A DNA stretch of 64,000 nt from Escherichia coli (GCF_003334405.1 NZ_QOWM01000006.1); one strand, 5' to 3'. Shown: positions 8,373 to 15,949, counted from the stretch's first letter. The notes: generated by a model not told the origin, from the sequence alone. Numbers and translations are program-made.

Positions 8373-8407
8373 GTAGCAGCACTGCCAGAAGGTGACAGTG
8401 CTGCTAC
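8373..8407 (-). terminator. 12-bp perfect-stem hairpin 3' of yadC (end of fimbrial operon)
   Basis: GTAGCAGCACTG (8373-8384) / CAGTGCTGCTAC (8396-8407), 11-nt loop; sits between yadC stop (8412-8414) and panB start (8298). Confidence 0.45.
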
Positions 8408-8411
8408 GTTA

Positions 8412-9650
8412 TCAGGGATAGGTTACCTGGAAAGTACTGGTGGCTTTAAATTCGCCGGGTTCGATAGCAATATTCCCGTCTTGCTTTAATGTTGCCTGGA
8501 AATGAAGAGGCTGTGATGTGCCGTTACCTTGATTAGGGTAAACCCCATCGGAGGTGTCATCTTCGGTTTCATAATCTATATAAACAGAATTCGTATCATT
8601 AGGTTTTAATGTCATTAGCGGATTTTTACTGGTTGCTAAACCTTCAATGAGTACGCCAACGCCTTTGGCGGCAGTGCTTCCAGTAAGCGTATTACCAAGC
8701 AGTTGTGTGTTTTGAGTACCTACTTTTCCAGTGACGAGTTTTGTTTCAATATTACGCACACGAATACAATTCTGAAGCGAGATATCAAAGGGAACAGGTG
8801 AAGCGCCATTTTTAATTGTCCCAGAGCTATATTCTCCCATTCTAACCGTTGAACCATTGACTGATGGCCCGGTAAGTATGGAGGTAAAACATGTTGGTAA
8901 GGTTAATTTGACATTATTCAGTGTGAAATTGACATAAATGTGGTTGCTGTGATCTACAACTTTTGTACCAGGACTGTAGGCCTTAAACGAATAAAGGTAA
9001 TTTGATGAACTGGATAACTGGACTTGCTGATTAAGTGTAGGATCGAAATTAGTATCTGTATAAAATTCAACAGTTATGTTGTGTACTATACCACCAATAG
9101 CCCAAAACTTATCGTAGTCGTCTGCTTTGTTGCAACCCTTAGTTTGTAGATCGCTGTCTGTGACGGAAAAGAAAAATTCTTGGTTGGAAGGATCTCCGAT
9201 ATAGATTCCTGGCGATTGAATGTCAGTTATTGTATCGTATGCAGACCAGACCCTTGATATTAACATGGTGTAATACAGACCAGGAACAGATGTATTAAAT
9301 AGTTTATGTCCGCCATAATCTTTACCTGAATAGACCATGGCATTTTCAATAGTTATTGGACCAGGATTCGCTCTGCCAGATGTATTGCAGTAAAGAATAC
9401 CACCACCGGTACCTGTATCCAGGTATGACCAGTACATTTTTACCCCAGTCGGGCCGAGCTGCGTGGGTTTATAAAAAACCAAGTTGCTTGCTGTTGATGT
9501 GTAATTAAAGGTCATCTGTGCGGCAGTGGAGGGGCCTCGATAGTTATCAACTCCTGCATTATTTCCCACAATAAAACTTGTATATGCACTGACTGTATTA
9601 CAACAAGAATACAGTGCTAAAAAAAGAATGTACCTGAAGATAGTCTTCAT
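8412..9650 (-). CDS. yadC: fimbrial tip adhesin-like protein
   Basis: 412-aa ORF with signal peptide; two-domain size typical of tip adhesins; C-terminal pilin-like end ...TFQVTYP. Confidence 0.9.
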
Positions 9651-9699
9651 TTTTACTCCAATGTTTCTTTATTGTTATGGTTTGCGCTGTTTTTGTTTG

Positions 9700-10296
9700 T
9701 TATTCGTAGTAAATATCCACTAACACATGGCTCATAAGTTGACCAGATGTAACACTCAATGCAGGATCGATTTTTTGCATTCGGGTGCTAAATTTCCAGG
9801 ATGAACCATTCATGTCATCCGACATTACTGGATAAACGGAACGAGATCCGCCTGAAGCATTAAGAACATTGAATGTATTCGCCGAATCCTGAGTAGAAAA
9901 TATAACTACTCCTACATTACTTGCTCCTGACGAAATTTCATTAGCAAATATTTGCCTAGAGCCAGCAGCCATGACACCGCTAAGGGCTCTAAAATCAATA
10001 TGTAACTGATTTAGCACATCGCCAGTTCCCTGTAATGCACAGTCGGATACAGTGATAGTGAACTCTTTTCCACCTGGTTGATAACTTTCAGGAGTAACAT
10101 TACCTGAAAAATATCCCACCCCAACGACGCCAAGATCAATATTACCCTGGTTACTGATTCCGCTTTTGCAGGTGCTGTTTTTTACATTGGCAACAAGGTC
10201 AATATCCTGTCCAGCAATGGCTGGACAGGCGATGCAAAACAGTAATGACAGAAACAGAATTATTCTCTTCATCAGCTTACGTTGAGTGGGATGCAT
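9700..10296 (-). CDS. yadK: fimbrial minor subunit
   Basis: 198-aa ORF, signal peptide, pilin-like C-terminus (VLVDIYYE). Confidence 0.9.
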   Translation of the reverse strand: MHPTQRKLMKRIILFLSLLFCIACPAIAGQDIDLVANVKNSTCKSGISNQGNIDLGVVGVGYFSGNVTPESYQPGGKEFTITVSDCALQGTGDVLNQLHIDFRALSGVMAAGSRQIFANEISSGASNVGVVIFSTQDSANTFNVLNASGGSRSVYPVMSDDMNGSSWKFSTRMQKIDPALSVTSGQLMSHVLVDIYYE

Positions 10297-10322
10297 ATAT
10301 AGTTCCTGAATCTGTAAGTCTG

Positions 10323-10928
10323 TTAGTTATAGGTTACTGTAAATGTGGCTGGTGCAGAAAACTTACCCGCAGTGACATTGTTTACGGTTTTATTTTTTTC
10401 CACGACCAGGCGTGCACTCATCGGATAATAAACGACCGCATTGGCTGCAGTGGAGATTGTTACCTCTTGTGATGCTGGTGTTACACAGCTAAATTGTGTT
10501 GCACTCCCTGTTGCCGGAGTTACAGTGCTCCAGACTTCAACGGCGACAGCACTTGCTTTATCTGCGGCTGTGGAACCATTTGCAAACCCCGCACCGTCAT
10601 TAGCAGTTCCCTCGCATGTGGCTCGCTTGGTTAATTTTATTTGCGCTTTTTTATTGGGGATACCCGCACAGTCTTTGAATTTGAGTTTGAATGTTTTTAC
10701 TTTGGTCTTGGCATTGATTTCAGAAATATATACATCACCAAAATCAACAACAGAAATGTCCTGATCAGAGTCATTTACTAATGTAGCGGTACAAGTACCC
10801 ATTTCTACAGTAGTAATAACGGTCAGTCCAATACTGTCTGTTGCCGCATAAGAGAGTACGCTGAACAATGAGGCAGCCAAAACGACACTGCTGGATAATC
10901 CATAACGTAAATTTTTAAATGTCATCAT
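10323..10928 (-). CDS. yadL: fimbrial minor subunit
   Basis: 201-aa ORF, signal peptide, pilin-like C-terminus (TFTVTYN). Confidence 0.9.
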   Translation of the reverse strand: MMTFKNLRYGLSSSVVLAASLFSVLSYAATDSIGLTVITTVEMGTCTATLVNDSDQDISVVDFGDVYISEINAKTKVKTFKLKFKDCAGIPNKKAQIKLTKRATCEGTANDGAGFANGSTAADKASAVAVEVWSTVTPATGSATQFSCVTPASQEVTISTAANAVVYYPMSARLVVEKNKTVNNVTAGKFSAPATFTVTYN

Positions 10929-10939
10929 AATTATCCTTC

Positions 10940-14123: not shown

Positions 14124-14157
14124 GCTATGCTTCCTGCGGAATTATATCCTTGCCTGA

Positions 14158-14898
14158 TTACAGCCTGGCATTACCTTCAATTGCGCCACCAAAGTCATTA
14201 ATGGCGTAAAAATGCACTTTTGCAGAATTCGCTTTGCCATTAAGGCCATTGACTTTCATGACCTCATCACTAAATGGTGCAATCATTTTCACATCAATCG
14301 GATAGCGTTTACCGCTAGCTTCTAAATCACCACTGCTAAAAGAGACGTAGTAAGGGGTTGGATTGGTCACTCGTAATGACGCCTTACCTTCTGAACCTGA
14401 CCAGAACCACTTCAGGGCTAACGGGGCTTCAGAGGGATTTCCCTTCAATCCATCCGGGCGATAGAAAAGTTTTATACGTGTGCGAAATGCCAGTTGCAGC
14501 AGGCTTTGATTCGCGACCTTTTCTGCATCTGGTTTTGGTGGAACTTCCAGTACGTTAAACCAGAACACGCTCTCTCTGTCTTTAGGCAGTGAGGTGCTGG
14601 CTGTGTACATTAATTTGATTGTTTGCCCACGTTTGGCATCAATACGCGATACTGGCGGCGTAGCAGTAAAAGGGACTGTAATACTGCCAGGCTCAGCGTT
14701 GTCATCGCCAGTATCTAACCAACTCTGGACAAGCAACGGGTTATTCCCTTTATTTTCCAGACGTACGTTGACACTTTTTTGATCGCTTTTATATATTACG
14801 CGAGTACCCGAAATGACAATGTCCGCAATAGACGATGAACTAAAAGCCATACAGGTTACGAAGCATAAAGCTGTTGTATGTTTGGTGTTAAAAAACAT
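14158..14898 (-). CDS. yadV: periplasmic fimbrial chaperone (PapD-like)
   Basis: 246-aa ORF, signal peptide; PapD-family chaperone pattern. Confidence 0.93.
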   Translation of the reverse strand: MFFNTKHTTALCFVTCMAFSSSSIADIVISGTRVIYKSDQKSVNVRLENKGNNPLLVQSWLDTGDDNAEPGSITVPFTATPPVSRIDAKRGQTIKLMYTASTSLPKDRESVFWFNVLEVPPKPDAEKVANQSLLQLAFRTRIKLFYRPDGLKGNPSEAPLALKWFWSGSEGKASLRVTNPTPYYVSFSSGDLEASGKRYPIDVKMIAPFSDEVMKVNGLNGKANSAKVHFYAINDFGGAIEGNARL

Positions 14899-14925
14899 AA
14901 ACCATCCCTGATAGAGTTAATTAAA

Positions 14926-14963
14926 ACAGGGAATAATATAAAATAGAAATTATTATTCCCTGT
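14926..14963 (-). terminator. 13-bp perfect-stem hairpin between yadN and yadV (intra-operon attenuator candidate)
   Basis: ACAGGGAATAATA (14926-14938) / TATTATTCCCTGT (14951-14963), 12-nt loop; immediately 3' of yadN stop on the minus strand. Confidence 0.4.
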
Positions 14964-14995
14964 ATATTCATTCAATCAATTTAACTGGTGAATAC

Positions 14996-15580
14996 TTACT
15001 GATAAGTAATGGTGTATGCAGTGTTAGTTTTTACATAACCAGCAGTTGCTGTTTGGTCTGCGACGGCACGAACGTAAGACGCTTTAAAATCATAAACAGC
15101 AGATTTTGTCGTTGCATCCAGGGCTTTAGTATACACATCGCCAGGGTTGTTAATTTGAACCTGTTTGATAGTGGAACCATCAATATTGTGTAGAGCGATA
15201 TTAACGCCGTCAGATGGGTTGTTAATAGACATGTCGTTGTTCAAAGTCCCTTTGCTGTTACCAAAGAAAACAGAACCGAAGGTCATTTTAGCCGTGCTAC
15301 CTGGATTCGGATTTGCTTTGCTGCAGTCAACGGTGATGCTGAAAGGTTTAGCTTTAGCGCCAACGGTGTCATTCAGTACGCCAGCATCGATTTCACCAAC
15401 GGTTGCGGTTTGCAGCAGGATCAGACCATCCTTGTTACCGCCGTCAACGCGGGTTTCACAGGTGTTATCAACAACCAGACCACTGATATTTAACTGACCG
15501 CCGTCCATATCAGCAGAAGCAGTACCTGCAACCATCGCCAGCATAAGACCAGACAGGGCAAAACCTAATTTTTTAGACAT
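14996..15580 (-). CDS. yadN: fimbrial major subunit (pilin)
   Basis: 194-aa ORF; signal peptide; pilin C-terminus (AYTITYQ); first gene of the operon. Confidence 0.92.
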
Positions 15581-15949
15581 AAAAATCCTTTAATAAAATT
15601 CCATTAGTCAGACTACATGTTTGAAGAATGACTATTCATGACACAAATAGGAGAAACAAATGTTAGATATTAATGAGCAATGATATTTGTTACCCAAATT
15701 TACAACCATTGTTCATTAGGTCGCCTATTGTGCACTTTAGAAGCTTTTGAACAAATTAAATTTACTTAATTCAAAATTAAGTAAAAATAAGTTCACAAGT
15801 GCAATTGGTTAGGGTATGGAGATGGGATTGATATTTATTTATAGGAAGTTATATTATTTCCGCAAAGAGATGTTTAAACTAAAATCGTAATTAAGGAAAG
15901 AGATGAGATATGATTTTCAGAAAATATTTATATTCGCAATATAAATAAA
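15581..15949 (-). promoter_or_regulatory. AT-rich control region upstream of yadN fimbrial operon
   Basis: About 370 bp, roughly one-third GC by eye; contains perfect 10-bp inverted repeat TTTACTTAAT-N5-ATTAAGTAAA (15761-15785); no coding ORF. Confidence 0.5.

Follow-up and report, generated by a model that had tools for sequence, protein, structure and literature searches.

The yad operon and adjoining features

Within the window, the whole 64,000-nt stretch of Escherichia coli DNA that was analysed, ORF calling gave seven intact, consecutive minus-strand ORFs between positions 8412 and 15580. The operon is 100% identical to annotated K-12-type records (yadC, yadK, yadL, yadM, htrE, yadV and yadN, as well as the panB and folK flanks), and the locus is the Yad chaperone-usher fimbrial operon of E. 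coli K-12 (yadN-yadV/ecpD-htrE-yadMLKC, gamma-4 class). The genes and the features around them are:

8335–8362, minus strand: panB promoter-like site (TTGCCC, 16-nt spacer, TG-TAAAAT; consensus scan), in flank DNA where the pre-insertion sequence resumes
8372–8408, minus strand: hairpin directly after the yadC stop codon, where the inserted block meets the panB side; it probably forms the 3´ end of the yad transcript or insulates it
8412–9650, minus strand: yadC, two-domain tip adhesin, 412 aa (NCBIfam NF007268, 884.6 bits, cutoff 382)
9700–10296, minus strand: yadK, minor pilin subunit, 198 aa (NF011794, 310.8 bits, cutoff 132; PF00419)
10323–10928, minus strand: yadL, minor pilin subunit, 201 aa (NF011795 (YadL), 447.7 bits, cutoff 392; PF00419)
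10940–11509, minus strand: yadM, minor pilin subunit, 189 aa as annotated (PF00419)
11526–14123, minus strand: htrE, outer-membrane usher, 865 aa, GTG start (NF007337, 1701 bits, cutoff 830)
14158–14898, minus strand: yadV (ecpD), periplasmic PapD-like chaperone, 246 aa (NF007398, 472 bits, cutoff 285)
14926–14963, minus strand: yadN-yadV intergenic hairpin resembling a terminator (stem of 13 bp, long loop of 12 nt, UUUU tail)
14996–15580, minus strand: yadN, major pilin subunit, 194 aa (PF00419, E = 9.8e-12; annotated yadN)
15581–15949, minus strand: yad control region (yadN-folK intergenic), 369 bp, 26.6% GC; location of the H-NS-repressed promoter according to the literature
15762–15784, no strand assigned: control-region palindrome TTACTTAA-N7-TTAAGTAA, candidate site for a dimeric regulator
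15950–15996, minus strand: final 15 folK codons, which diverge along with the fimbrial cassette as part of one block

The genes all lie on the same strand, separated by 11–97 bp. Full-length NCBIfam equivalog matches above cutoff were obtained for YadC, YadK, YadL, HtrE and YadV, and the Pfam Fimbrial domain (PF00419) was found in five of the seven proteins. The pilins begin with a hydrophobic leader, have paired Cys residues at about positions 40 and 86 and carry Tyr as their second-last residue, as illustrated by YadN (signal peptide, Cys41/Cys86) and YadK (signal peptide, Cys pair, C-terminal Tyr motif). For YadM, the closest named family is StaD, with a score under the StaD cutoff; a longer yadM ORF, beginning at an ATG, extends to 11551. 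HtrE carries the PapC_N (PF13954, 5.7e-45), Usher (PF00577, 9e-158) and PapC_C (PF13953, 2.5e-19) domains, and YadV both Ig-like domains (PapD_N, 1.1e-44; PapD_C, 1.1e-19). Pilin-family matches in YadC, including the Pfam Fimbrial domain, are confined to the C-terminal part of the protein (residues ~230–412). A sequence search of the PDB found no relative of YadC; the best PDB fold matches for its AlphaFold model (pLDDT 78), which aligned along its whole length, were the full-length tip adhesins LpfD, FimH, CupB6, FocH and PapG. The locus thus holds a chaperone, an usher and five pilin-domain proteins that include a two-domain tip adhesin, bearing out an earlier note, made from this DNA alone, that described a complete seven-gene chaperone-usher operon.

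The nearest named relatives of the subunits and chaperone are StaA, StaD, StaE, StkA, StkG, YehD and StbB (NCBIfam), and the usher has been placed in the gamma-4 class of the Nuccio and Baumler phylogeny, together with Yeh, Sta, Stb, Stc and Stk (PMC7098969, PMC3373541). Assembly of surface fimbriae has been reported for the K-12 and O157 operons. By analogy with these protein families, the subunits would be exported by Sec and capped through donor-strand complementation by the PapD-like chaperone YadV, and the usher HtrE would assemble them in the order YadC tip, YadK/YadL/YadM adaptors and YadN rod. The operon, its silencing, its inducing cues and its ligands are already characterised, and the locus is not a new system.

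Composition, silencing and the control region

The GC content of 8373–15949 is 41.7%, compared to 52.2% elsewhere in the window, and this is the lowest-GC stretch of its own length within the 64 kb. The earlier note had drawn its contrast from 60-mers, and its two examples held up (35.0% at 9001–9060 and 48.3% at 7501–7560), as did the aberrant composition of the block, although the figure of about 35% does not describe the block average. GC3 also sets the block apart from its flanks: it is 0.34–0.41 in the yad genes and 0.52–0.62 in panB, panC, folK, pcnB and gluQ, and rare codons make up 3.9% of the block vs 1.6% of the flanks. The 30-mers that are at least 80% AT occur at 23.1/kb inside the block and 0.5/kb outside, an enrichment of ~46-fold. 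In its AT content, which is well over the genome average, the block resembles AT-rich DNA of the xenogeneic type.

Silencing, which the earlier note had proposed, agrees with published derepression in hns mutants of both K-12 and ExPEC (PMC13245861, PMC12460168): yad promoter-reporter activity increased >100-fold in a CFT073 hns mutant, and yad was induced by serum (PMC13245861), while yadC was upregulated in hns-deleted E. coli (PMC12460168). The published high-affinity 10-mer motif for H-NS was not enriched (1.06/kb in the block, 1.15/kb outside), so that the local sequence supports silencing through general AT-richness only. The same note had considered the receptor and the expression conditions not evident; both are in the literature, with serum, acid, temperature and anaerobiosis as inducing cues and with xylose glycans and annexin A2 as ligands. 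According to published work, transcription begins in the 27% GC region adjoining folK and is normally shut by H-NS spreading over AT-rich DNA, with serum, acid, temperature and oxygen cues partly relieving the repression.

The AT-rich region of 370 bp described earlier on the folK side is 369 bp long, and differs more between alleles than any other part of the locus. A sigma-70 consensus scan gave no coding-strand match inside this control region, and promoter-like sites were not enriched (19 found, 20.0 expected). The palindrome is perfect in K-12 and JMF1, which differ in the spacer, is found at the same position with 2–3 mismatches in two other K-12-family alleles and is absent from O157-type alleles. 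It was matched with at most one mismatch in none of 2000 shuffles. We also considered a fim-like invertible switch, but no long inverted-repeat pair frames the control region and Yad has been published as not phase-variable.

Hairpins downstream of yadC and yadN

The hairpin on the panB side is real, though slightly longer than the 12 bp at 8373–8407 given previously: the perfect arms are 13 nt each (8372–8384 and 8396–8408), and if a single mismatch is allowed the stem grows to 16 pairs around a loop of 5 nt. The predicted RNA fold has a free energy of -30.4 kcal/mol (z = -7.55). The whole window contains only two perfect short-loop inverted repeats of 13 bp or more, the other being the hairpin between yadN and yadV, and 20 shuffles gave none. 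The conserved panB promoter block in K-12 begins immediately after the hairpin, which we suggest would end or insulate the yad transcript just before the panBC promoter.

Instead, the yadC hairpin could stabilise the 3´ end of the mRNA, bind a protein or be the original insertion scar, and the lack of a U-tract after the K-12 stem, the failure of the terminator scan to detect it and its position exactly on the insertion border all fit such roles. All seven other alleles examined, Salmonella included, nevertheless carry a GC-rich hairpin in this position, its stem sequence differing each time and a short U-run following it in the O157, NCTC9008 and Salmonella alleles; no hairpin is present at empty folK-panB sites. 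That the position is kept while the stems change argues for a selected RNA structure over a scar. Because the hairpin is single copy in each genome, it is also not a REP-type repeat. We regard a role other than termination as the less likely, if still appreciable, alternative.

The region of the yadN-yadV hairpin folds at -25.2 kcal/mol (z = -3.69), and a strong hairpin, each time with its own stem, lies just 3´ of the major-pilin stop codon in six of the seven other alleles, with canonical U-tails in the O157 and NCTC9008 types. The consensus terminator scan flagged neither yad hairpin, and terminators were not enriched. The yadN-yadV hairpin is a putative attenuator that probably passes only part of transcription and so would set an excess of major-subunit mRNA.

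Distribution, exchange of alleles and related systems

Of 5426 complete E. coli genomes, 5228 (96%) carry an usher homologue; these homologues fall into discrete identity classes, and every class or example that we sampled sits between folK and panB. The locus is therefore nearly universal in E. coli and not a strain-specific island, which comes close to the universal conservation at this position that the earlier note had set against its own proposal. Published surveys point the same way, with Yad described as core-associated and ancestral to both Escherichia and Salmonella (Wurpel et al. 2013, PMC3559732; PMC3373541 concurs) and the operon intact in 94% of genomes (Wurpel 2013, PMC3559732).

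The earlier note had proposed a horizontally acquired island. In some Salmonella and in another Enterobacteriaceae lineage (loci L011–L015), folK and panB are only 94–120 bp apart with the panB promoter block kept, and relative to these empty junctions the borders at 8373 and 15949 match an insertion. The empty junctions, together with the low GC and GC3 and the excess of rare codons, would suit a recently acquired, strain-variable genomic island between housekeeping genes, as would the handling of yadC as a horizontally transferred gene in PMC12460168 and the cassette swaps between strains with identical flanks, which show that horizontal exchange occurs. Classical marks of such islands were nevertheless missing: the block contains only the seven fimbrial ORFs, with no integrase or transposase, an Rfam search of the block and the DNA next to it gave neither a tRNA nor any other RNA family, the longest direct repeat at the borders is 7 nt, within chance, and presence varies little among strains, with an usher homologue in 96% of genomes. 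Sta-type operons also occupy the same folK-panB slot in some Salmonella. The insertion and the low GC thus stand, and recent arrival is largely refuted because occupancy of the slot is near-universal; we consider it improbable. The contexts outside E. coli are a handful, taken from PanB and HtrE homologue searches and exact-protein contig look-ups, and these few loci may fit ancestral presence or repeated import into a favoured slot alike. We suggest that the block entered the short spacer between folK and panB long ago, is shared with the Salmonella Sta type and is now nearly fixed in E. coli.

The allelic classes are deep, with usher DNA ~100, 96, 81, 78, 71 and 67% identical. Between NCTC9008 and K-12, the flanks are 99–100% identical while the cassette is ~30–70% identical, with breakpoints at 8313 and 15996; at 15997 and above the two strains are 100% identical, and lower positions do not align. 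The C-terminal tails of FolK differ for each cassette class. These breakpoints are consistent with deeply diverged allelic cassettes that replace one another through recombination in the housekeeping flanks.

Yad is silent in laboratory culture, and some strains carry IS insertions, a frameshift or a deletion mediated by IS1, as might be seen for a cryptic relic that is becoming a pseudogene and is retained only through silence. All seven frames are intact and full length here, as is the operon in most genomes; published work describes fimbriae on expression and attenuated infection upon yad deletion, and the structured allelic diversity is focused on the lectin domain of the adhesin, which points to selection. 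We judge decay to be very improbable, well below even a recent island.

Taken together, it is very likely that this is the K-12 Yad operon, silenced by H-NS, inserted long ago between folK and panB, probably tuned by hairpins and now existing as allelic cassettes. More speculatively, and with considerable doubt about the whole, the folK-panB slot could be a cassette-exchange locus where recombination in the flanks trades entire fimbrial operons belonging to three or more deep families. Each swap would also move the final 15 codons of folK, which is essential, two terminator hairpins kept in position and changed in sequence, and the AT-rich control region, and the K-12-family palindrome would be the operator of a factor that increases the activity of the yad promoter in serum also when H-NS is absent.

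As a discovery, the locus matters little, being already known: Yad has been studied since 2010 as H-NS-silenced cryptic adhesins and later for its contribution to virulence in infections of the bloodstream and urinary tract. What is added here are the allelic cassette classes, the 15-codon folK tail in the divergent block and the position-kept hairpins. For dissecting yad regulation, the conserved hairpins and the palindrome offer targets that are concrete and inexpensive to study. Surveys based on an identity threshold, for instance 80% to a single HtrE, overlook deeply diverged alleles at this same site, O157:H7 being an example, and thus understate how universal the locus is. With this 80% threshold, under which the O157:H7 type falls, phylogroup E was scored as Yad-negative in PMC13245861.

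Compared to known systems, the operon does not differ from the Yad fimbriae of K-12 MG1655 in sequence, gene order or flanks. The O157:H7-type "Yad" (ECs0139-0145) shares the slot, the seven-gene layout and the literature name, but its usher is 60% and its YadN 40% identical to those of K-12 Yad, and its adhesin has no BLAST-detectable similarity to K-12 YadC. It is as distant from K-12 Yad as is the Salmonella Sta type (sta, with sba and sdg), which is regarded as orthologous to Yad (PMC3559732, PMC3373541). Sta-type operons share with Yad the folK-panB slot, the order of pilin, chaperone, usher, three minor pilins and adhesin, the AT-rich upstream region and the hairpin before panB. They differ in their usher (only 61–65% identical to K-12 Yad) and YadN (37%), in an operon body of ~51% GC as opposed to 42% and in being missing from many Salmonella serovars; one salamae-type locus, unlike Yad, contains a tandem array of four adhesin-size genes. 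Type 1 (fim) and P (pap) fimbriae have the same protein families, the same presumed assembly logic and the same two-domain tip adhesin fold. Unlike fim and pap, Yad, which is reported not to be phase-variable, has neither an invertible promoter switch nor a Dam/Lrp/PapI phase switch, and no dedicated regulator gene was seen among the ORFs of the locus. In Yad a hairpin follows the major-subunit gene, and this arrangement is found in fim and pap too.

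Gene content and composition of the yad block

The interval 8412-15580 of the window is filled by seven consecutive minus-strand ORFs, and a megablast search of 5,426 complete E. coli genomes found 7000-17500 to be 100% identical to K-12-type chromosomes, in whose records the genes appear as yadC, yadK, yadL, yadM, htrE, yadV and yadN, flanked by panB and folK. These genes are the Yad chaperone-usher operon, an already known locus that the earlier note, in proposing a seven-gene pilus operon on one strand, had described accurately. YadC, YadK, YadL, HtrE and YadV score above the curated cutoffs of NCBIfam equivalog models, and the closest NCBIfam relatives of YadN and YadM, both below cutoff, are Salmonella StaA and StaD, respectively. 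Pfam matches comprise five Fimbrial domains, PapD_N with PapD_C, and PapC_N with Usher and PapC_C. The pilins carry signal peptides together with the usual Cys pair and the penultimate Tyr, and the gaps between genes are 11-97 bp. No solved structure of YadC was detectable by sequence search; an AlphaFold model built on 11 alleles (pLDDT 78) matches the full-length tip adhesins LpfD, FimH, CupB6, FocH and PapG. Judging from the protein families, the chaperone would cap each subunit and the usher would polymerise them, tip adhesin first and YadN rod last. We also noted that yadM, annotated as a 189-aa form, could start 42 nt earlier at another ATG in the same frame (10940-11551), which would give a 203-aa product and a 26-nt overlap with the end of htrE.

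Composition, as had been proposed, differs from that of the flanks, and so does codon usage. At 41.7% GC, the block (8373-15949) lies below the remainder of the window (52.2%), and no other stretch of equal length in the 64 kb is as low; the previously noted ~35% holds for the sampled 60-mer only, not for the block as a whole. GC3 is 0.34-0.41 in the block genes versus 0.52-0.62 in the flanking housekeeping genes, and six rare codons together account for 3.9% of block codons versus 1.6% in the flanks.

Borders and hairpins

At empty junctions, folK and panB are 120 bp apart in Salmonella enterica (24 contigs share this context) and 94 bp apart in another enterobacterial lineage, with nothing in between. 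The panB promoter block of these junctions (AAATCAnTTGCCCCC...TGACTGnTAnAATGCC) is conserved in K-12, where it resumes directly after a hairpin on the yadC side. The extra DNA therefore extends from the folK stop codon to this hairpin, within one base of the block coordinates first suggested. The features concerned are as follows.

8362-8335, promoter-like site in the conserved panB promoter block
8372-8384 and 8396-8408, perfect 13-nt arms of the yadC-side hairpin, 3´ of the yadC stop codon
14926-14963, second hairpin, between yadN and yadV, a 13-bp stem followed by UUUU

The first hairpin, previously read as a 12-bp stem, is real; it can also be drawn as 16 pairs with one mismatch, and has a fold energy of -30.4 kcal/mol (z = -7.55). 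The window has only two perfect, short-loop inverted repeats with arms of 13 bp or more, both inside the yad operon, and 20 shuffles gave none. Among seven further alleles, five from E. coli and two from Salmonella, a hairpin follows the adhesin gene in 7/7 and lies just after the major-pilin stop codon in 6/7, each with a different stem sequence, and the yadN-proximal hairpins of O157 and NCTC9008 are canonical terminators. The panB-side hairpin is absent from the empty-junction genomes, and a consensus terminator scan flagged neither 8372-8408 nor 14926-14963. We infer that the hairpin after yadN is a putative attenuator behind the major-subunit gene and that the one after yadC, which precedes the panBC promoter, is a putative terminator or insulator.

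A dispersed repeat was also considered for the yadC-side hairpin and rejected, since its K-12 version occurs as a single copy per genome. rpnC (5665-6567), which encodes a recombination-promoting nuclease of the Rpn family, adjoins panC in E. coli; such a gene likewise adjoins panC in a Salmonella locus with an occupied slot (L019) and is absent from one with an empty slot (L010); this pattern may be coincidence.

Cassette classes in the folK-panB slot

Using sensitive blastn, an htrE homologue was detected in 5228 of the 5426 E. coli genomes, with identities of at least 99% in 1211, 95-99% in 2077, 90-95% in 10, 80-90% in 565 and 60-80% in 1365; all sampled classes sit in the folK-panB slot. 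The term island used in the earlier note is thus only partly apt: the block is extra DNA relative to empty junctions, but it is near-ubiquitous in E. coli, no integrase, transposase or tRNA was found at the block, and there were no border repeats beyond chance.

The ushers form three protein families, K-12-like (75-87% to K-12), O157/NCTC9008-like (60%) and Salmonella Sta-like (61-65% to both), and BLAST detects no similarity between the O157-type adhesin and K-12 YadC. One study put Yad prevalence at 70%, with none in phylogroup E (PMC13245861), figures that reflect its threshold of 80% against one HtrE sequence; in O157:H7 the slot is occupied by the 60% usher family. Between NCTC9008 and K-12, the flanks are 99-100% identical and the cassettes only ~30-70%, with breakpoints at 8313 and at 15996. 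The latter is 47 nt inside folK, and the last 15 FolK residues therefore change with the cassette.

The 15 terminal codons of folK, an essential gene, (15950-15996) differ per cassette class; over the remainder of the gene, K-12 and NCTC9008 are 100% identical. The NCTC9008 protein ends ...QNRLTILNTSQPVIW, unlike the 15-residue tail of K-12, and the O157 tail is one residue longer, with a Trp retained at or beside the C-terminus. On the other side, panB (7504-8298) is only 92-94% identical to K-12 at four loci with other cassette classes (L002, L004, L006 and L007), whereas pcnB is >99% identical in the two strains compared, which suggests that panB divergence is elevated and linked to the adjoining cassette. 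pcnB itself (16426-17823) overlaps folK by 4 nt; its annotated start is an ATT codon at 17823, while the mechanical ORF list reaches a TTG at 17844.

In natural strains the yad locus has repeatedly been disrupted by insertion sequences or damaged in other ways (loci L003, L005 and L007; match records H1, H4, H5, H21 and H36). These include IS3 within htrE, IS3 in the folK-yadN interval, an IS1-associated deletion leaving only the 3´ part of yadC, and a frameshift in yadN. In H1, H4 and H5 the match is split by ~780 extra bp, and H5 carries an IS1 transposase annotation.

Control region and relation to Salmonella Sta

The yadN-folK spacer is 369 bp with 26.6% GC, matching the predicted AT-rich control region of about 370 bp. 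The suggestion that the block is silenced agrees with published H-NS repression of yad in K-12 and ExPEC. Reporter activity rose >100-fold in an hns mutant (PMC13245861), and deletion of hns also raises yadC expression in E. coli (PMC12460168). The operon is serum-inducible, and yad deletion attenuates bacteraemia (PMC13245861). The serum effect persists without H-NS (PMC13245861), which makes an activator likely. At 15762-15784, a perfect palindrome, TTACTTAA-N7-TTAAGTAA, keeps its position among K-12-family alleles inside otherwise unalignable DNA and is absent from O157-type alleles; speculatively, it is a candidate activator site. Published H-NS silencing, which nucleates on the 27% GC region, would be complemented in yad control by the two hairpins in their putative roles. 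Ambient temperature, anaerobiosis, biofilm growth, 41 degrees C and acid have also been published as cues, and xylose-containing glycans and annexin A2 as ligands; Yad is reported not to be phase-variable. Promoter and H-NS motif scans were uninformative for the block. An Rfam search returned nothing in the block and three gathering-level matches elsewhere in the window.

39541-39586, HtrA 5´ UTR thermometer
48457-48543, t44 RNA
49382-49491, CssrA sRNA

A Sta-like operon occupies the identical folK-panB slot in some Salmonella, including subsp. salamae. In Salmonella enterica CP053411.1 (L019:13443-18490) it ends in four tandem adhesin-size genes (393, 413, 375 and 416 aa) rather than one. Of these genes, three hit the YadC-type NCBIfam family; the remaining one hits no NCBIfam family but has a Pfam Fimbrial domain. 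Wurpel et al. (2013) classed Yad as core-associated, with 94% of strains carrying it intact, and as ancestral, because they took it to be the equivalent of Salmonella Sta, found at the same locus (PMC3559732); Yue et al. (2012) concur (PMC3373541).
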